64,000 nucleotides of DNA from an uncultured Candidatus Binatia bacterium (GCA_965214605.1 OZ243961.1:1632001-1696000), one strand, 5' to 3'; positions 27,731 through 44,435 are shown, numbered from the stretch's first letter. The notes: generated by a model not told the origin, from the sequence alone. Translations and numbers: made by a program.

Positions 27731-29026
27731 TCAAGCCGACGATCCCCCCTCCCGTGCCGCCACCTCCGGCAGTCCACCCTCCAGCTCAATCGGCTCGGGC
27801 ACGACGAGGAAATAGTACACCAGAGTCGCTACCAGCAGCATGGCGGCAATGACCACCAGGGGCAGCTCCCAGCTGCCCGTTGCCGCCACCAGAAAGCCGG
27901 CGCTCATCGGCCCGAAAATCCCGGCGCAATTGCCCGCTCCGTTCATCACGCCCGAGATCGCGCCGATTTGTTTGGGGTTCAGTTCAACCGGCACCGCCCA
28001 ACACGCTCCACTGCCCAGATTGGTGAAATACATATACAAGGCCAGACACGCGACCGACACGATCGGCCACGGCACGAACGCGGCGGCCAGGATGCTGGGA
28101 ATGCCCAGAAACGCGCACAGTGCGGGTGCCTGCGCCCGGGCCACCCGTGGACTCCAACCACGCCGCAGCAAGACATCCGAAATCGTCCCGCCGGAGATCA
28201 GCCCCAAGGCTCCCGCCACGGTCGGGATCATGCCCAAGAGCCCCATTGCTTCCAGCGAGAAGCCGCGGGCTTGGACCAGATAGGTCGGCAGCCATAGGAT
28301 GACCATCCACAGCCCATACACCATGCACAGATAGGCCAGGGAGAGCAGCAGGACGTGCCGATTTCTGAGAATGCGCAGCGGAGAAATCGTTGCCTTGGAA
28401 CGCGGGGCCAGATTCTCCTCAATTTCCCGCAGCTCTTGTTTGCTGATGCGGGGATGCTCGGCCGGCGTATTCGTTACCGAAGCCAGCCACACGATCAGCC
28501 ACAGCACGCCCAGGGCCCCATTAAAATAAAAAACCGCCGGCCAGGCAAAGGTGGCGATAATCCAGGTCGTCAGCGGATAGGCCAGGGCTTGGCCCAGGTG
28601 TGATCCGGACAGACTGATATTCTGGGCCCGGCCGTACTCATAGCGCGGAATCCAGCGGGCGTTCAGCACCGCGTAGGCTGGAAAGCTGACCGATTCGAGC
28701 AGACCTACGCCGAACCGCAAGGCCAGCATCAGGCCGAAGGCGGCCGCCCCAAGCGGCGTCAGCGCGGTAAACAGCGAAAAGCCAAAACACGCAATCGCCA
28801 CCACCCAGACCGTATTCCAGCGGTCGGCGATAATTCCGCCCGGAATCTGGAGCAGCGTATAGCCCAGCAGAAAGGCCGAAAAAACCAGACCGAACTGAGC
28901 CTCATCCCAGCCCAGAGCGGCCATCATGACGGGCGCGGCAACCGAGATATTCACCCGGTCGGCATAGTTGATCATACTGCCCGTGGCCAGCAGCCCGACA
29001 AGTTTGTAGCGCACCGGTAGGGCCAT
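27731..29026 (-). CDS. MFS transporter (anion:cation symporter-like)
   Basis: INYADRVNISVA, QIPGG..ADR, about 12 TM segments. Confidence 0.88.
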   Translation of the reverse strand: MALPVRYKLVGLLATGSMINYADRVNISVAAPVMMAALGWDEAQFGLVFSAFLLGYTLLQIPGGIIADRWNTVWVVAIACFGFSLFTALTPLGAAAFGLMLALRFGVGLLESVSFPAYAVLNARWIPRYEYGRAQNISLSGSHLGQALAYPLTTWIIATFAWPAVFYFNGALGVLWLIVWLASVTNTPAEHPRISKQELREIEENLAPRSKATISPLRILRNRHVLLLSLAYLCMVYGLWMVILWLPTYLVQARGFSLEAMGLLGMIPTVAGALGLISGGTISDVLLRRGWSPRVARAQAPALCAFLGIPSILAAAFVPWPIVSVACLALYMYFTNLGSGACWAVPVELNPKQIGAISGVMNGAGNCAGIFGPMSAGFLVAATGSWELPLVVIAAMLLVATLVYYFLVVPEPIELEGGLPEVAAREGGSSA

Positions 29027-29036
29027 ACGGTTTTCC

Positions 29037-29357
29037 TTAAGACCGGATCAAATCGTGGGCGCGGATTGTGACCGAAGGAGCCGACCCGTCCTCAAAAAAA
29101 TAATCCTCAGTGACCTGACTCATCGGTCCAAACTCCAGGTTCATGGCGACCGTGTCCTCGCTCGGCCACCAACGCAGGCGCACACCGAGTGCCCCGGCCG
29201 GCACCTCATGTCGGGTCGGGCGGCCGCCCGACCCGTCGTAAAAATAGTCGCCCTCCTCGCCCTCACGCGAGACCAACCAACTGCCCATCCAGCGCTTACG
29301 GCGATCTTCCGCCAGCTCGGCCTCACCCCAGTCCACAATCAATCGGTCCGGTTTCAT
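29037..29357 (-). CDS. Hypothetical protein
   Basis: ATGA overlap with upstream amidohydrolase stop; same-strand operon position. Confidence 0.55.
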   Translation of the reverse strand: MKPDRLIVDWGEAELAEDRRKRWMGSWLVSREGEEGDYFYDGSGGRPTRHEVPAGALGVRLRWWPSEDTVAMNLEFGPMSQVTEDYFFEDGSAPSVTIRAHDLIRS

Positions 29358-30475
29358 GCCCGTCCCTCGTCCGGAATCTCAAACCCGTACAATTCGGCCG
29401 CCGTTCGCCCCAACACCTGGCGTCGCTCGTCATCGCTCAGCGTGCCCATCGTGCGCTCGATAACCTCCCGAGAGCGCGGCCAGGTCCCCTCGTGATGCGG
29501 ATAGTCATCGCCCCACATCAGGTTTCCGACGCCGATCCACTGGTGCGTCTCCAGCCCGATCGGATCATCTTGAAACGTGGCATAGCCCTGGCGGCGGAAG
29601 TACTCGCTGGGCAACATCTCCAGCTTTGGCGCGACCCAAAAGTGGTGCTTCTGATAGCCCTCATCCATGACCCACAGGGTCCACGCCAGCCAGCCGATCC
29701 CGGCTTCAACCGTGGCAAACTTGAGTTGCGGAAAGCGCTGCAAAATACCCGACACACACATCTGGGTTACCGGTTCAATCGCGGTGGACAGCGCGTGCCA
29801 CACATAGTTGAGAATGGCCCCGCCGTTTCCGGTCGCGGTACGTGGATCTTTGCCTGTCCCGACATGAAAACTCACCGGCAGGCCGGCGGCCTGAATCGCC
29901 GCCCACAACGGCTCGTACAGCGGGAGATTATAGGGCTGGTCCGGGACCTGGACCGGCAGAAAGACCACCCGATAGCCGAGCTTGGCTACCCGTTCAACTT
30001 CCTTGACCGCGGTCTCGACGTTCTGGGGAGCAATCGCCGCCACTGGCAGCGAACGCTTTTGGGTGGGCGAAAAGACCTCAATCGCCCAGTCGTTCCACAC
30101 CCGACACATCTCGGTCTGATGGTCCGGGTCCGGCGAGGCCCACATCAATAGGCCCCGGTTGGGATACACGACCTCGGCATCAATGCCGTCCCGATCCAGG
30201 TCGGCGTGGCGTTTGCCCGCCTCCCAGCTCCCGCCTTTGGCGCGTTCCAGATCGTCCCCTTCGAGGTTGAAATCCCGAATCCGAGTCGGCCGCTGGCCCT
30301 CAACAATGAGCGTTTTTCGACCCCTGGCATCCAGTTCCATGCGGGGCAACCGGTGGCGAAACTTGGGCGCAACACGGCGCTCCCACAAATCCGGCGGCTC
30401 CAGTACGTGGCAGTCTGCCGATATCACAAAATACTTTTTAGCAGCTCTCGCATATTCAGAGCCCGCCGACGCCAT
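29354..30475 (-). CDS. Amidohydrolase_2 family protein
   Basis: ISADCH, VEAGIGW, WGDDYPHHEGTWP. Confidence 0.88.
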   Translation of the reverse strand: MASAGSEYARAAKKYFVISADCHVLEPPDLWERRVAPKFRHRLPRMELDARGRKTLIVEGQRPTRIRDFNLEGDDLERAKGGSWEAGKRHADLDRDGIDAEVVYPNRGLLMWASPDPDHQTEMCRVWNDWAIEVFSPTQKRSLPVAAIAPQNVETAVKEVERVAKLGYRVVFLPVQVPDQPYNLPLYEPLWAAIQAAGLPVSFHVGTGKDPRTATGNGGAILNYVWHALSTAIEPVTQMCVSGILQRFPQLKFATVEAGIGWLAWTLWVMDEGYQKHHFWVAPKLEMLPSEYFRRQGYATFQDDPIGLETHQWIGVGNLMWGDDYPHHEGTWPRSREVIERTMGTLSDDERRQVLGRTAAELYGFEIPDEGRA

Positions 30476-30501
30476 AATCACACCTCCCGCCCTATATCCA
30501 T

Positions 30502-31464
30502 TCACTTAATCGCGTACGCATTAGCCGGCGATCCGACTCCGCCCGGCAAATTGAGCGGCACCGACACCAAAAAGAACGCATACACCCCATCCCGGGCGCA
30601 ATCCCGGGCCAGTTCCTCCAGGTCCCACACCTCACCGATCGGCATCCCCTGCAGGGCGATCAGCCGCCGATGCTGGAAGCCGCCCGTCTCGGCCTTGACC
30701 GGCAGCGCCTCAAGCGCCACGTTATCCGAGGCCATGGCGGCAATCCGATGATCCCACAGCCAGGCCGCGGTCTCCTGCCCGGCATCCAACCCGGGACAGG
30801 CCATGCCCCCCTCGCCCGGATGCAGGGTCCCGCGCAAGGCCTCACGGCCGGCCGCATCCAGCCCGCTGTACCAGGCCAACCAGCCGGTGCGGAGAATCAG
30901 CACATCCCCGGCTTGCAGCGTCACGTTCTCGGCCTCGGCAATCTGCTCCAAAAATGGGCCGTCCATCGCAAACCGTCGGCCAGCGTCCAACGGCGTGCCT
31001 CTCTGTTCCATATAACGGGCCGCATCAAGCAAAACGCCGCGTCCAACAATACCGTGACGGGCCCAGTTCTCAATCCCCAGCTCGCCCTTCTCGTCCAACT
31101 CCTCATCCTGGCGACCACCATAATAGCCGAACTCCCGGTAGCGGATATGACGTAGGCTGTCCCACTGGCTTGAGCCCTGCAGAGCAAAATTATCCACATA
31201 ATCGTCGCGTCCACCCCGGTTGACCTCGATATGGTGCCGATAACCGGTCCGAAACCCACCGTACAGACTAATCGGAAAGTTGAGCGGGAGGCTGAGGTTG
31301 ATCACCCGGCCGGTCCGCACCAGACCGGCCGCCTGTTTGACCCGCTCCGGGGTCAACAGATTGACCGTGCCGAGCTGATCTCCAGGCCCAAATACCTCCC
31401 AGGCCTGACGTTCTCCGGTTTGTCCGACCTGGGGAAGATCGCGGAACAGCGGTATGTTCGCCAT
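30502..31464 (-). CDS. Cyclase family (kynurenine formamidase-like) protein
   Basis: DQLGTVNLL, SSQWDSLRH, GRGVLLD, GDVLILRTG, GVGSPAN. Confidence 0.85.
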   Translation of the reverse strand: MANIPLFRDLPQVGQTGERQAWEVFGPGDQLGTVNLLTPERVKQAAGLVRTGRVINLSLPLNFPISLYGGFRTGYRHHIEVNRGGRDDYVDNFALQGSSQWDSLRHIRYREFGYYGGRQDEELDEKGELGIENWARHGIVGRGVLLDAARYMEQRGTPLDAGRRFAMDGPFLEQIAEAENVTLQAGDVLILRTGWLAWYSGLDAAGREALRGTLHPGEGGMACPGLDAGQETAAWLWDHRIAAMASDNVALEALPVKAETGGFQHRRLIALQGMPIGEVWDLEELARDCARDGVYAFFLVSVPLNLPGGVGSPANAYAIK

Positions 31465-31643
31465 AACAGCCTCCTTGGTAGCCCAACAGCCCGCGCTCCT
31501 CATAGCAAAGTCCCGCCCGGACCGCAAAGCGGGGGGGAGGGAAAGGGGGAATGTCAAAAGGCAAATGGAGAGGGAGTCCCTTCACGGCTGCGCCCGATCT
31601 TAGCGTTGCGGCAAGCAGTGCTTTTGCCTATGATGCCCCTTAT

Positions 31644-32510
31644 ATGCACCCGAAACTCCAGTCCCTCGACGAAGCGGCAGCCGGAGTGCGGCCGGGGTCC
31701 CTGCTCGGCATGACATCGGCCGTGCTCGACAACGCTCCCATGGCTTTTTTGCGAGCGCTGGTCAAACGCGGGGTCGACCGCCTTGGGCTTGTGACTCTGA
31801 CCGGCGGCGGACTCAACGCCGATCTGCTGATCGGTGCCGGAGTAGTGGACAGCTACGAAACCTGCTCCTGTACCCTCGGTCCCTACGGCCCGGCTCCCAA
31901 CTTCCAACGCGCCGTGCAGGCGGGCTTGATCAAAATGAAGGATAGTACTTGAGGGGTGCTGTACAGCATGGTCCAGGCTGGATCAATGGGGGTGCCCTTT
32001 GTTGCCGTGCGCGGTTTGCTCTACTCCGATATGCTGAAATATCGCCCTGATCTGCTCGTCCAGGATAATCCGTTCAATCCCGGCGAGCAGGTTGTCGTGG
32101 CCCAGCCGATCCGGCCCGATGTCGCCGTTTTCCACGCCCTGCAGGCCGACCGATGGGGCAATACAATTACGCCCGGTCCCCGGGACGATGTGATGCTGGC
32201 CCGCGCCGCTCGGCGGGTGATCGTCACCACCGAGACCGTGGTCGACACCCCGCTCAGCCCAGGGGATGCTCCCCGGGATACCTTCCTGCCCGCCATTGAT
32301 GTGGATGTCGTGGTTGAGGCGCCGCTGGGCGCCCACCCGTGCGGTCTAGGCCGGCTGTATGAACACGACCCGGACCACTGTCGGACCTATCTCATCGCGG
32401 CCCAACACCAAGAACGGTTTCGAGCCTATCTCGAACACTACATTTTTGGTATCATGAGCCATGATGGCTACCTCAGCCGGGCAGACGAGACGCTCCGGGG
32501 AAGAGCCTAG
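31644..32510 (+). CDS. CoA-transferase subunit A (GctA-like) with in-frame TGA at 31950-31952, probable selenocysteine
   Basis: ORFs 31551-31952 and 31956-32510 are in the same frame and join as ADLLIGAG..APNFQRAV..KDST*GVLYSMVQAGSMGVPF..RGL..SD; hairpin follows the TGA. Confidence 0.75.
31953..31999 (+). promoter_or_regulatory. Candidate bacterial SECIS element
   Basis: GGGTGC..CAT-GGTCCA-GGC-TGGATC-A-ATG..GTGCCC can fold into a stem-loop with a G-initiated apical loop 23 nt after the TGA (folded by eye). Confidence 0.5.
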
Positions 32511-32513
32511 CCC

Positions 32514-33242
32514 GTGTCGGCCTATACCCCACAAGAACTAATGGCCGTGCTCATCGCCCGTCAGGTTCGCGATGGAGAAACCGTAGCGGTTGGAGCGGTC
32601 TCACCCATCCCGGCTGCCGGCTGTGTGTTGGCCGAACAGACTCATGCGCCCGACATCACCCTGATTATTCTTGACTGTGAGGAGTACTATCCGTTCTCCG
32701 GCGGCAGCAGCGCGCTACACTTTCTGGCCCAGCGTGGAGAGTTAGACCTGTTTTTTCTCAGCGGGATACAGATCGACCAACACGCCAATGTGAATCTGCA
32801 CGTCATTGGCGATTACTCCACGCCTAGTCTCCGCCTGGCCGGGGCGTATGGCTCGGCCATGTTGTACTACATGGCCCGCCGCGTCATCCTGTTTCGGACC
32901 GAACATTCTCGGCGGAGTCTGGTTCACCACGTCGATTTTGTCACCAGCCCGGGCAGCACCCCGGCCTCGGTTCACCGCCAGGGCGGTCCGAGTCTGTTGA
33001 TTACGCCCAAGGCCGTGCTGGAGTGGCGGGCCGATGGCTGGGCGTGTCACAGCATTCACCCTGGCTACGGCGTCCAAGACCTCCGCGAAAACACCGGTTT
33101 TGACCTTGTCTTATCCCCTTCCCCACCAACCACCCCTCCCCCAAGCGAAGAGGAACTCTCGGTCCTGCGCACCGTTGTCCGGACCAAGCTCGCCCACAGC
33201 TACCCGGACTTTTTTGAGCAGAAAGTCCTGCTCGGGGGCTGA
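32514..33242 (+). CDS. CoA-transferase subunit B (GctB-like)
   Basis: DLFFLSGIQID..ANVNL, RLAGAYGS, EHSRRSLV..VDFVTSPG, ENTGFDL. Confidence 0.82.
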   Translation: MSAYTPQELMAVLIARQVRDGETVAVGAVSPIPAAGCVLAEQTHAPDITLIILDCEEYYPFSGGSSALHFLAQRGELDLFFLSGIQIDQHANVNLHVIGDYSTPSLRLAGAYGSAMLYYMARRVILFRTEHSRRSLVHHVDFVTSPGSTPASVHRQGGPSLLITPKAVLEWRADGWACHSIHPGYGVQDLRENTGFDLVLSPSPPTTPPPSEEELSVLRTVVRTKLAHSYPDFFEQKVLLGG

Positions 33243-33251
33243 GGGTTGACA

Positions 33252-34418
33252 ATGAACGTTAGCCATCTCGCATGTGCCGCCTGTCAGCGCCACCACCCGC
33301 CCAACCAGCTCTATAACCTGTGCCACACGTGTCATAAGCCGCTCCTGGTCCACTATCGGCTCGACCGTGTCGCCCGCGCCCTCGACAAACACAGCCTGGC
33401 CAGTCGTCCAGCCAACCTGTGGCGTTACCGAGAGGTGTTGCCGGTTGAACACGCGGCAAACATCATCAGCCTTGGAGAGGGCTGGACACCGCTCATCCAT
33501 GCCCACCACCTGGGGCGCCGACTCGGACTCTCTCAGCTCTATATCAAAGACGAGGCGCTCAACCCGACCGCCTCGTTCAAGGCCCGAGGCATGAGCGCCG
33601 CGGTGTCAATGGCCAAAGAGCTCGGGGTCAAAAAACTGGTCGCGCCCTCGGCCGGCAACGCGGCCAGCGCCTTAGCCGCCTATGCGGCCCGAGCCAAGCT
33701 GGAAGCCCACATCTTTATGCCGCGCGACGCGCCGGCAACCAATCGCATTGAGTGCCAATACTACGGAGCCCGGATCACTCTGGTTGACGGCCTGATTACC
33801 GATTGCGGCCGTATTGTGGCCGAACGCAAAGACCGGGAGGGCTGGTTTGATGTCTCAACGCTCAAAGAGCCATACCGCCTTGAGGGCAAAAAAACGATGG
33901 GCTACGAATTGGCCGAGCAGTTCGACTGGCAGTTGCCCGAGGTGATTGTGTATCCAACCGGAGGCGGAACCGGGCTCATCGGCATGTGGAAGGCGTTTGA
34001 CGAACTGGAACAACTGGGCTGGATCGGTTCCGCCCGGCCGCGCATGGTCAGCGTCCAGGCCGAGGGCTGCGCACCGATTGCCCAGGCCTGGGCGGCCGGC
34101 GCCCGGACCGGAGCGCACATCCCACAGCCCTACACCGTCGCCGCGGGGCTGCGCGTGCCCAAGGCCATCGGCGACTTTATCGTGCTTGACATTCTGCGGG
34201 ACAGCGGTGGTAGTGCGGTCAGCGTCAGCGACGCGGCGATCCTCGCCGCGGCCCAGGAGTTGAGCGCGGCGGAAGGCATTTTCCCCGCCCCTGAAGCGGC
34301 CGCCTGCATACCAGCCCTCCGCATCCTCCTTGAACGCGGCGCACTCACACCCGACGAGCGGGTGGTCATGTTTAACACCGGTTCGGGCCTGAAGTACACG
34401 GAGCTGTGGCGGGACTGA
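33252..34418 (+). CDS. thrC: Threonine synthase family PLP enzyme
   Basis: SLGEGWTPL, NPTASFKARG (PLP Lys), SAGNA, YPTGGGTG, FNTGSGLKY. Confidence 0.85.
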   Translation: MNVSHLACAACQRHHPPNQLYNLCHTCHKPLLVHYRLDRVARALDKHSLASRPANLWRYREVLPVEHAANIISLGEGWTPLIHAHHLGRRLGLSQLYIKDEALNPTASFKARGMSAAVSMAKELGVKKLVAPSAGNAASALAAYAARAKLEAHIFMPRDAPATNRIECQYYGARITLVDGLITDCGRIVAERKDREGWFDVSTLKEPYRLEGKKTMGYELAEQFDWQLPEVIVYPTGGGTGLIGMWKAFDELEQLGWIGSARPRMVSVQAEGCAPIAQAWAAGARTGAHIPQPYTVAAGLRVPKAIGDFIVLDILRDSGGSAVSVSDAAILAAAQELSAAEGIFPAPEAAACIPALRILLERGALTPDERVVMFNTGSGLKYTELWRD

Positions 34419-41640: not shown

Positions 41641-44435
41641 TGGCTGACATCTCTACCAATACCGATGGGCTAATCACCTTCACTTTAGACGGGCGGACGC
41701 TTACCGCCCGGCCCGGGGAAACCATTCTCCAGGCCGCCCAGCGACACGGGGTGGAGATTCCCCACCTGTGTTATACCGACGGCCTGCGGCCCGACGGCAA
41801 CTGCCGGGTGTGTGTGGTGGAAATCAGCGGCGAGCGGCCCTTGGCTCCGTCGTGCTGTCGGACGCCGACCAACGGCATGGAGGTGTCGAGTCACAGTGAG
41901 CGGGCGCGTCATTCGCAAAAAATGGTCTTGGAATTGCTTCGGTCCGATGTGACCGATACGCCGTATACGCGCGAGTCGGAGCTGGAGCTGTGGACACACA
42001 AGCTGGAGGTTGGCCCCCCCCGCTTTGCGCCCCGTCAGCAGCTACATTCAGACGTGTCCCACCCGGCTATTGCGGTCAATCTCGACGCCTGTATTCAGTG
42101 CACCCGCTGTCAGCGTGCCTGCCGCGAAGAGCAGGTCAACGATGTGATCGGCTATGCGAAACGCGGCAGCCAAGCCGAAATTGTCTTTGATATTGCCGAT
42201 CCAATGGGTCACAGTTCGTGCGTTGGCTGCGGCGAGTGTGTTCAAGCCTGCCCAACTGGCGCGCTGATGCCAGAGGGTGGTGTAGGGCTGGTTGAACCGG
42301 AGAAAACCGTAGACTCGGTGTGTCCCTACTGTGGGGTAGGCTGTTTGCTGACCTACCACGTCAAAGACAACACAATTCTATATGTCACCGGTCGGGACGG
42401 GCCAGCCAACCACGGCCGGCTATGTGTCAAAGGCCGCTTTGGCTTTGACTATGTGAATCACCCCCAGCGTTTAACACACCCCCTGATCCGCAAGCCCGGC
42501 GTATCCAAATCGGCCGAGGTCAACTTTGATCCGGCTCACTGGGAAGACATCTTTTACAAAGCCGATTGGGACGAAGCTCTTGAGGCGGCGGCCAACGGGC
42601 TTAAGAAAATCCGCGACCAAAAGGGCGGCCATGCCTTGGCCGGCTTTGGTTCGGCCAAGGGCAGCAACGAAGAGGCATATTTATTCCAGAAGCTGATTCG
42701 GACCGGTTTTGGCAGCAATAATGTTGATCACTGCACGCGCTTATGCCACGCCTCATCAGTAGCCGCCTTACTCGAAGGTATTGGATCGGGTGCGGTCTCC
42801 AATCAGGTTGAGGACGTGGCCGAAGCCGAGGTGATCGTCATCATCGGCTCGAACACCCCCGAAAACCATCCGGTTGCCGCCACCTTTATGAAAAACGCGG
42901 CCAAAGCCGGAAAGACGCTGATCGTCATGGATCCGCGGCGCACCGCGTTGGCCCGCCACGCCAGCTACTATCTCCAGTTCAAACCTGACACTGACGTAGC
43001 GCTACTGAACGCCATGCTCCACACCATCATCGAAGAGAATCTCGTCAACACCGAGTTTGTCGAAAAGCGCACCGAAGACTTTGAGCTGCTTCGCCAAAAT
43101 GTGGCCGGCTTTAGTCCCGAGGAGATGGCTCCCGTCTGCGGTATTGAGGCGGCCACAATCCGTGAGGTGGCCCGACGTTATGCCACGGCCTCGGGGGCCA
43201 TGATATTCTGGGGCATGGGCGTCTCGCAGCACATCCACGGCACTGACAATGCCCGGTGTCTGATCGCCCTAGCCTTGATAACCGGCCAGGTCGGCCGTCC
43301 CGGTACCGGTCTGCACCCCCTGCGCGGCCAGAACAACGTCCAGGGTGCCTCTGACGCGGGTCTCATTCCAATGGTCTTTCCCGACTATCAGCGGGTGGAC
43401 AACGAAACAGCCCGGGAGCGGTTTGAAGCGCTGTGGCACACCACGCTGGACGCCAAACCGGGGCTGACGGTTGTCGAGATCATGAATGCCATTCTGGATG
43501 GCAGCCTGCACGGCATGTACATCATGGGGGAAAACCCGGCCATGTCCGATCCCAATCTCCACCATGCCCGCCAGGCGCTGGCCGCGCTCGATCATCTAGT
43601 CGTCCAAGACCTCTTCCTGACCGAAACCGCCGCCTTTGCCGATGTCGTCCTGCCGGCCTCAGCTTTTCCAGAAAAAACCGGCACGTTCACCAACACGGAC
43701 CGCCGGGTACAGTTAGGTCGGCGGGCGCTTGACCCGCCGGGCGAGGCTCGCCAAGACCTGGACCTCCTCCAAGCAATCGCCCGGCGGCTGGGGCTGGCCT
43801 GGCACTATGCAGATGCCGAGAGCGTCTTTGCCGAAATGCGCCAGGCCATGCCCAGCATTGGGGGAATTAGCTGGGAGCGGCTGGAGCAGCACGGCTCGGT
43901 CACCTATCCCTGTACCAGTGAGGCTGACCCAGGGCAGCCGGTCGTTTTCCAAGAAGATTTTCCCACCGCCAGCGGTCGAGGCCGCTTTGTCCCGGCCCGA
44001 CTGATCAGCGCTGACGAGCTGCCGGATGAAGAGTTCCCCTATGTCCTCATTACTGGCCGTCAGCTGGAGCACTGGCATACCGGTGCCATGACCCGCCGCT
44101 CCCGTGTGTTGGATGCGATTGAACCCCAGCCGGTGATTAACATCCATCCTGATGCGCTGACGACTATTGGCGGCACGGAAGGCGCGCTGCTCAGAGTTGC
44201 CTCGCGACGCGGTGAACTCATCGCCGCCGCCCGGGCTGACAGCAACATGCGCCGGGAAGAAATTTTCATACCGTTTTGCTACCAGGAAGCCGCCGCCAAT
44301 CTGCTGACCAATGACGCCCTCGACCCGTATGGAAAAATTCCCGAGTTCAAGTACTGTGCGGTACAGATTGAGGTGGCGAAAGGGGTGGGTGGAGATCTAG
44401 GAGGAGCTGTCGGCCCCAGAACTCCTAAGGGATGA
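41640..44435 (+). CDS. fdhF: Mo/W formate dehydrogenase alpha subunit (Cys-type)
   Basis: N-terminal Fe-S domains, CPYCGVGC, RLCHASS (Cys ligand), LRGQNNVQG, PEFKYCAV. Confidence 0.9.
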   Translation: MADISTNTDGLITFTLDGRTLTARPGETILQAAQRHGVEIPHLCYTDGLRPDGNCRVCVVEISGERPLAPSCCRTPTNGMEVSSHSERARHSQKMVLELLRSDVTDTPYTRESELELWTHKLEVGPPRFAPRQQLHSDVSHPAIAVNLDACIQCTRCQRACREEQVNDVIGYAKRGSQAEIVFDIADPMGHSSCVGCGECVQACPTGALMPEGGVGLVEPEKTVDSVCPYCGVGCLLTYHVKDNTILYVTGRDGPANHGRLCVKGRFGFDYVNHPQRLTHPLIRKPGVSKSAEVNFDPAHWEDIFYKADWDEALEAAANGLKKIRDQKGGHALAGFGSAKGSNEEAYLFQKLIRTGFGSNNVDHCTRLCHASSVAALLEGIGSGAVSNQVEDVAEAEVIVIIGSNTPENHPVAATFMKNAAKAGKTLIVMDPRRTALARHASYYLQFKPDTDVALLNAMLHTIIEENLVNTEFVEKRTEDFELLRQNVAGFSPEEMAPVCGIEAATIREVARRYATASGAMIFWGMGVSQHIHGTDNARCLIALALITGQVGRPGTGLHPLRGQNNVQGASDAGLIPMVFPDYQRVDNETARERFEALWHTTLDAKPGLTVVEIMNAILDGSLHGMYIMGENPAMSDPNLHHARQALAALDHLVVQDLFLTETAAFADVVLPASAFPEKTGTFTNTDRRVQLGRRALDPPGEARQDLDLLQAIARRLGLAWHYADAESVFAEMRQAMPSIGGISWERLEQHGSVTYPCTSEADPGQPVVFQEDFPTASGRGRFVPARLISADELPDEEFPYVLITGRQLEHWHTGAMTRRSRVLDAIEPQPVINIHPDALTTIGGTEGALLRVASRRGELIAAARADSNMRREEIFIPFCYQEAAANLLTNDALDPYGKIPEFKYCAVQIEVAKGVGGDLGGAVGPRTPKG

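Follow-up and report, generated by a model that had tools for sequence, protein, structure and literature searches.

The closest described relatives of the gene pair reported here are three alpha/beta enzymes of the coenzyme A (CoA)-transferase fold. Glutaconate CoA-transferase (GctAB) of Acidaminococcus fermentans (1POI) gave the highest score among solved relatives for either subunit. Its beta residue Glu54 forms an anhydride; this residue is missing in IpdAB, which is no transferase (PMC5380842). IpdAB (6CO6, 6CO9, 6COJ and 6CON), the COCHEA-CoA ring-opening hydrolase of Mycobacterium tuberculosis and Rhodococcus jostii, is an alpha/beta enzyme of the GctAB branch. AibAB (5MZW-5N03), the 3-methylglutaconyl-CoA decarboxylase of Myxococcus xanthus, shares the fold but is no transferase, and AibB carries Cys56 where the transferases have Glu (PMC7756340). 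Here we describe a pair of adjacent genes of this fold from an uncultured Candidatus Binatia bacterium, located on a stretch of 64,000 nucleotides (GCA_965214605.1 OZ243961.1:1632001-1696000; hereafter the window), whose alpha-subunit gene is interrupted by an in-frame TGA. It is highly probable, judging from the comparison of orthologues and homologues, that this UGA is decoded as selenocysteine (Sec), and likely that the pair as a whole constitutes an alpha/beta enzyme of the CoA-transferase fold which acts on a CoA thioester and whose alpha subunit is a selenoprotein.

The reading frame of the alpha subunit extends from ATG 31551 or ATG 31644 to a TAG at 32508-32510, and the TGA (KDST[TGA]GVLY) is its sole interruption, as an earlier note on this DNA had stated. 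When the TGA was read through, residues 37-257 of the product matched positions 2-217 of the 217 positions of the PF01144 profile with 58.5 bits, so that both halves are spanned by the same family. The open reading frame of the beta subunit begins 3 nt past the alpha stop and encodes a second PF01144 protein (67 bits; the Pfam cut-off is 23 for either subunit). Both subunits thus have the fold of a family I CoA-transferase. The NCBIfam models for CoA-transferase subunits, however, gave scores of only 29.7 (cut-off 128.5) and 23 (cut-off 243.6), which marks the pair as a distant member of the fold. Among proteins of solved structure the alpha subunit was most closely related to GctA (1POI, 1.7e-32), AibA (5MZW, 7e-28) and IpdA (6CO6, 6COJ and 6CON, about 1e-21), and the beta subunit to GctB (1POI, 6.1e-23) and AibB (5e-18). 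The alpha start codon may be either that at 31551 or that at 31644. The shorter form listed in Table 1 was adopted because the more distant orthologues begin at the Met of 31644, while the start at 31551 is kept within the genus only. Residue 103 of this form is residue 134 of P0001, which is numbered from the upstream ATG.

Table 1. Features of the CoA-transferase-like locus (positions in the window)
Feature	Position	Strand	Remarks
Alpha-subunit gene, GctA/IpdA-like CoA-transferase fold	31644..32510	+	288 residues, Sec = residue 103; PF01144 at 8.1e-16
In-frame TGA, very probably decoded as Sec	31950..31952	+	Comparison of orthologues and Cys homologues
Hairpin of the selenocysteine insertion sequence (SECIS) type	31967..31988	+	Codon freezing, pairing, covariation
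Beta-subunit gene	32514..33242	+	GTG start, ordinary TGA stop at 33240-33242; PF01144 at 2.1e-18
ThrC-like pyridoxal phosphate (PLP) enzyme	33246..34418	+	NF006050 threonine synthase, 593.8 bits; context only

The in-frame TGA is not a peculiarity of one genome. In 41 related genomes all 17 matches with 66-100% identity carried a TGA, in every case in one and the same alignment column, and no weaker (paralogous) match did. When 401 genomes from the phylum were sampled, 8 further ones had the gene; they belong to a single other family and every one carries the TGA. Another 17 loci were found in named genome records (Candidatus Binatia, 'Deltaproteobacteria', a metagenome-assembled genome (MAG) of Methylomirabilota, Syntrophaceae, a Dehalococcoidia MAG and a few odd labels). 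In the combined set of 42 loci from Binatia, Syntrophaceae-like bacteria and other MAGs the codon was TGA in 41 and TGC in one, which belonged to a Dehalococcoidia MAG. A homologue was present in 48 of 301 Dehalococcoidia genomes, and the 30 loci fetched from these had TGA (25), TGC (4) or TGT (1). The earlier note had asked whether any other genome has a TGA at this site; evidently many do.

The coding sequence is conserved on both sides of the TGA, with amino-acid identities of 51-91% and many synonymous changes, and no second stop was found in 27 of 29 orthologues. This bears on the possibility that the gene is a pseudogene or that the TGA arose by a sequencing or assembly error. A decayed copy does occur in one member of the genus (L029, G007 C1:3380187-3383648), where the alpha gene contains two TGAs, the N-terminal half is disrupted, the match is limited to residues 61-226 and the locus yielded no beta gene. 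Decay of the gene as such, however, is hard to reconcile with a TGA and hairpin shared by 55 distinct sequences, which represent three named lineages or more, with so many synonymous changes or with the absence of other stops. Error is contradicted by contigs from the runs of three studies (X2, which is possibly the source, X5 and X6), which span the TGA without a single differing letter; in the contigs of X7 the TGA lies outside the coverage. An explanation of this kind is so improbable that it can practically be set aside in favour of a functional gene. The other orthologue with an additional stop was L026 (G019 C11:53057-56905), whose alpha gene has a second TGA close to its 5' end; this part is poorly aligned, and a frameshift in the MAG or a later start is possible. 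The Dehalococcoidia locus with TGT at the Sec column (L087, G520 C4:28557-32417) has one TGA elsewhere inside the match. Four loci (L043, L055, L056 and L057) come from MAGs titled 'uncultured Enterobacteriaceae' or 'Klebsiella pneumoniae'. Their genes are 67-75% identical to the Binatia gene and, in the segments that flank the TGA, match Binatia-family loci exactly. The titles look wrong.

If the UGA encodes Sec, Cys would be expected at the aligned position of homologues. A search of 1.84 billion representative proteins gave 2015 matches, the best 150 of which were aligned. In these the Sec column contained Glu (53), Cys (40), a gap (14), Asn (10), Gly (9), His (7) and a few others, the gaps being fragments that begin after the TGA. 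The count of Cys becomes 43 when the query and two earlier matches are added. Among the Cys forms the motif D(S/A)TCP(A/V) is frequent, in agreement with the statement in the earlier note that related subunits read KDATCPA at this place; Trp or Arg did not take the place of Cys. Cys is also encoded by the five loci with TGC or TGT.

The distribution of these residues follows the phylogeny. In a tree of 128 full-length sequences a clade characterised by Cys (28 Cys, 6 Sec, 1 Ala) was separated from a Glu-dominated remainder with 100% support. The Sec group, itself supported by 100%, was the sister of the Cys forms P0004 and P0008 (support 91) and thus sits inside a clade that is otherwise Cys in 28 of 29 sequences. 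A second Sec motif, DSTUP, occurs in Dehalococcoidia loci and resembles the DSTCP forms, which indicates that at least two branches of the clade contain Sec. In the solved relatives the column is occupied by Gln in GctA, by Gly in AibA and by Glu in IpdA (6CO6 and 6CON); the Ala of 6COJ presumably reflects an E105A variant of IpdA. We take the Glu of IpdA in this column to be Glu105-alpha, the catalytic base.

Downstream of the TGA the transcript can form a hairpin, CAUGGUCCA-GGC-UGGAUC(A)AUG, which starts 14 nt past the TGA and comprises 9 pairs, an apical loop GGC of 3 nt (31976-31978) and a single bulged base (31985). Its upper part, GGTCCA-GGC-TGGATC at 31970-31984, places a G-led loop 23 nt past the TGA. 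This upper stem-loop had been pointed out in the earlier note, and we found it again, paired beyond the level of shuffled sequences, in the 55 distinct sequences with the TGA. The hairpin shows signs of selection on the RNA: synonymous variation in codons +7 to +10 amounted to 0-0.21 bits, while the flanks reached 1-2 bits. The stem codons of 31 distinct sequences were GTC (17/17), CAG (31/31), GCT (30/30) and GGA (30/31), whereas flanking residues that are equally conserved use 3-5 codons each. The third base of the Ser codon that is bulged in the hairpin is free (T 10, C 9, G 7 and A 5 in the 31 sequences). Each pair of the hairpin can form in 29-31 of the 31 sequences, and in the alignment of all 55 rows 93.9% of stem cells were paired compared with 88.7 ± 0.6% after shuffling (0 of 500 shuffles reached as high a value). 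Sliding the stem partners against each other reduced pairing to 18-40%. One pair, 22-34, is compensatory (GU 28, AU 15 and CG 11 in the 55 rows). In the Cys-form genes (five distinct sequences), on the other hand, just 2-4 of the 6 core pairs are possible; in other words the hairpin is absent where the codon is not TGA.

It might be argued that the TGA is simply a stop, so that a piece of about 100 residues from the N-terminus and a C-terminal piece, translated anew from GTG 31956 or ATG 31968, assemble without residue 103. TGA is an ordinary stop elsewhere in the genome, for example at the end of the beta gene, and database annotation agrees with a split gene. Among the best 120 proteins from a metagenome protein collection 118 were only 175-193 residues long and started 3-12 residues past the Sec column, while the other two were full-length and had Cys at the column. 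These late starts can be explained by the fact that gene callers treat TGA as a stop at this place. Moreover, the break would hit exactly the residue that defines the Cys clade, and the Val codon two codons past the TGA, on which one of the restarts depends, is a non-start codon in 7 of 30 sequences (GTT 4, GTA 2 and GTC 1). The frozen synonymous sites, the compensatory pair and the similarity of the hairpin to that of selD (see below) would be left without a reason, as would the fact that precisely the genes with TGC or TGT lack the hairpin. A split gene is consequently very improbable, and the following is written on the assumption that the UGA is read as Sec. A group of homologues which at first seemed to consist of short proteins beginning after the TGA (cluster 7) was dropped, since its members turned out to be unrelated tetratricopeptide repeat (TPR) proteins.

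Decoding of UGA as Sec depends on dedicated factors, the presence of which the earlier note had recommended to check. The genome encodes SelB (382 bits), SelA (583 bits) and SelD (388 bits), all with profile scores above the curated cut-offs, as well as a tRNA-Sec (tca) at C1:3624480-3624574 beside selA. The selD gene, which adjoins selB (G000 C1:1899798-1902715, minus strand), contains an in-frame TGA of its own (KAAG-U-AGK). As in the alpha gene, the UGA of this SelB-dependent selenoprotein has a short hairpin downstream, at a distance of no more than about 15 nt, whose apical loop is rich in G, and the sequence, GGGUCC-GGC-GGACCU, is similar to that of the alpha hairpin. Of the 9 occurrences of the pattern G[GA]TCC-N?-GGC-N?-GGA[CT]C in the genome, only two follow an in-frame TGA in a long open frame, namely those in selD and in the alpha gene. 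A further selenoprotein gene, encoding an AhpD-like protein with the motif DCSY-U, was found at G000 C1:598263 on the plus strand.

Formate dehydrogenase is the most widespread bacterial selenoprotein. The window contains a gene for its alpha subunit at 42318-44369 (G000 C1:1674318-1676369; TIGR01591, 759.5 bits) which has no in-frame stop, so the genome uses the non-Sec form of this enzyme. Sec has thus been kept in SelD, the AhpD-like protein and the alpha subunit of the pair, while formate dehydrogenase does without it.

Several observations weigh against the proposed interpretation, or at least lend it less weight than might be thought at first sight. The covariation in the hairpin stems mostly from one pair and is common to related sequences; because these share their changes, the variants of pair 22-34 represent a few events and not 11. 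The additional base of the stem proposed in the earlier note (GGGTGC/GTGCCC) does form in the window but is not kept in the orthologues, where T occupies column 8 in 30 of 31 sequences and the opposing column 45 in 18 of the 31. As a single sequence the hairpin region folds with an energy z score of -1.57, and 15 of 200 shuffled sequences folded equally well, so that this energy is unremarkable. An Rfam scan of positions 31800-32150 gave no match at E <= 10. The hairpin of the AhpD-like gene has a U-rich loop, and since it differs in this way the likeness between the selD and alpha hairpins is no genome-wide rule. Co-occurrence with selB is uninformative because selB is almost universal in the group: it was found in 38 of the 41 relatives and is present in a genome with the Cys form (G432) too. 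Conversely, at E <= 1e-60 no selB match was obtained in two of the eight TGA-carrying f50 genomes, both of which are fragmented assemblies. No RNA run that contains the stretch was listed among the 14 runs checked. As far as function is concerned, the lineages differ in their gene neighbourhoods (cyclase, amidohydrolases, major facilitator superfamily (MFS) transporter, thrC-like and tRNA-Thr_ED-like genes), the comparison of which revealed neither a pathway nor a substrate.

What reaction the pair might catalyse can be approached through the beta subunit. Opposite the ESGL motif of GctB (with Glu54) and the CVGS motif of AibB (with Cys56) the beta sequence has a gap of 4 residues, and no catalytic-Glu motif of the ESG/SENG type was conserved in 27 distinct beta sequences. 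The remark in the earlier note that the beta subunit does not clearly show the usual ESG Glu was thus justified. In subunit sizes and gene order the pair is the same as GctAB, but the loop on which catalysis by GctAB depends is deleted and GctA has Gln in the Sec column. Because the beta subunit has lost the loop with the Glu that forms the acyl-anhydride and CoA-thioester intermediates, ping-pong CoA transfer is very unlikely, and the pair is probably not a true CoA-transferase but a Sec-dependent enzyme acting on CoA thioesters. It is not of the AibAB type either: the loop with Cys56 is absent, and AibA has Gly in the Sec column.

IpdAB offers a parallel in where the key residue sits. It likewise combines a beta subunit without the catalytic Glu with a key residue in the alpha column discussed above. 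The pair nevertheless differs from IpdAB in that Sec or Cys replaces the alpha Glu, identity is only about 25-30% and the two fall into separate clades with 100% support. Steroid genes such as echA20, ipdC and fadA6, which would indicate degradation of steroid rings, were not seen among the neighbours. With Sec in place of Glu, no steroid context and a clade of its own, the pair would not be classed as IpdAB.

The Sec probably lies at the active site, and we are inclined to regard it as the catalytic residue, a view for which the evidence is somewhat better than balanced. A possible sequence of events is as follows. SelB with Sec-tRNA(Sec) would bind the hairpin while the ribosome is positioned on the UGA, and the completed alpha subunit would form a heterodimer with beta that binds acyl-CoA at the interface of the two. 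The selenolate could then act on the acyl part, either as a nucleophile or as a base; a retro-Claisen cleavage of a C-C bond, similar to IpdAB or to thiolases, and a Michael-type addition are examples. This last step is tentative. The earlier note had already proposed a Sec/Cys-dependent variant with different chemistry; this is still the best reading, and the checks on homologues, other genomes, Sec machinery, hairpin and beta subunit all speak for it, although the chemistry itself is a proposal.

A different role for Sec must be considered in view of the fact that almost all known selenoproteins are oxidoreductases. The selenoprotein would be real but its Sec would be redox-active, forming a selenenylsulfide with Cys105 of alpha (P0001 position) or Cys37 of beta and handling a thiol, disulfide or persulfide such as CoA-SH or CoA-disulfide. 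Thiol-based oxidoreductases make up most of the known selenoprotein families according to a 2026 review (PMC13188914). Suitable partners also exist: Cys105 does not vary among the 8 sequences of A1, the nearest Cys forms included, and neither does Cys37 among the 27 distinct beta sequences. In the wider Cys clade, however, the Cys105 column is variable (S 15, G 12, A 7 and C 5 of 43), and profile searches of the pair found no CxxC/UxxC-type motif and no thioredoxin-like domain. The Sec column, moreover, is a carboxylate in the related Glu-type clade and in IpdA, which favours acid-base or nucleophilic chemistry. We therefore consider a redox function unlikely, albeit not negligibly so, and give preference to an attack of the selenolate on the acyl group. 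A metal-cluster site or a general pair of Cys residues was also envisaged but dropped, since Cys105, Cys107, His262 and Cys264 of alpha are not kept across the Cys clade.

More than 110 prokaryotic selenoprotein families are known according to the 2026 review (PMC13188914). A search by term of this review and of one from 2022 (PMC9312934), including their tables, gave no entry for a CoA-transferase, glutaconate or PF01144 selenoprotein. Full-text literature searches, judged by title and abstract, did not reveal a CoA-transferase selenoprotein either, the supplementary tables of surveys, which may list the family, lying outside their scope. Nor does NCBIfam (20.0) contain a specific model for the Cys/Sec clade; the names assigned are only 'glutaconate CoA-transferase subunit A'. 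The pair thus appears to represent a type of selenium enzyme absent from the selenoprotein catalogues checked, with a UGA that, by sequence comparison, is almost certainly read as Sec. It is conceivable, if somewhat doubtful when all parts are taken together, that we are dealing with the founding member of a selenium-dependent, non-redox group of CoA-transferase-fold enzymes in which a selenolate, acting through a selenoester or selenohemiketal or as a base, replaces both the beta Glu of the transferases and the alpha Glu of IpdAB, and in which the Sec form is commoner than the Cys form in Binatia, Syntrophaceae-like bacteria and Dehalococcoidia.

If this is true, the use of Sec as the working residue in a fold of acyl-CoA enzymes would extend the known biological chemistry of selenium, and Sec, Cys and Glu would form a natural series at one catalytic position that can be compared. 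The abundance of such enzymes in bacteria of soil, groundwater and sediment is hidden because public annotation cuts the gene in two. A model specific to the family would put hundreds of records right, and the Cys clade around the Sec group is likewise uncharacterised.

The beta gene is the only constant neighbour of the alpha gene. It adjoins alpha in 33 of 38 loci of the Binatia/Syntrophaceae type that have any neighbour match (some loci end earlier) and in all 30 Dehalococcoidia loci, while tRNA-Thr_ED-like and MFS genes recur in few loci. The ThrC-like gene directly follows beta and is possibly co-transcribed with it, but it is a neighbour only in loci of the same genus (L014-L017 and L041). 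The genome has three ThrC-like copies, the other two being 37% and 30% identical to this one. Upstream of the pair lies a divergent set of genes on the minus strand (27731-31557) which comprises a putative cyclase (PF04199), an Amidohydro_2 protein (PF04909), an open reading frame of 106 residues without a family and an MFS transporter. This set is conserved together with the pair within the genus and in part in L027 and L050. Three loci (L044:3273-3701, L045:3234-3896 and L046:3393-3962) have a different gene directly upstream of alpha, which encodes a free-standing 'archaea-specific' editing domain of threonyl-tRNA synthetase (PF08915, E about 1e-34). The assignment was made by Pfam for L044 and L046, and L045 was grouped with them by sequence likeness. 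Besides the ThrC-like enzyme this is the second neighbour of the pair with a relation to threonine.

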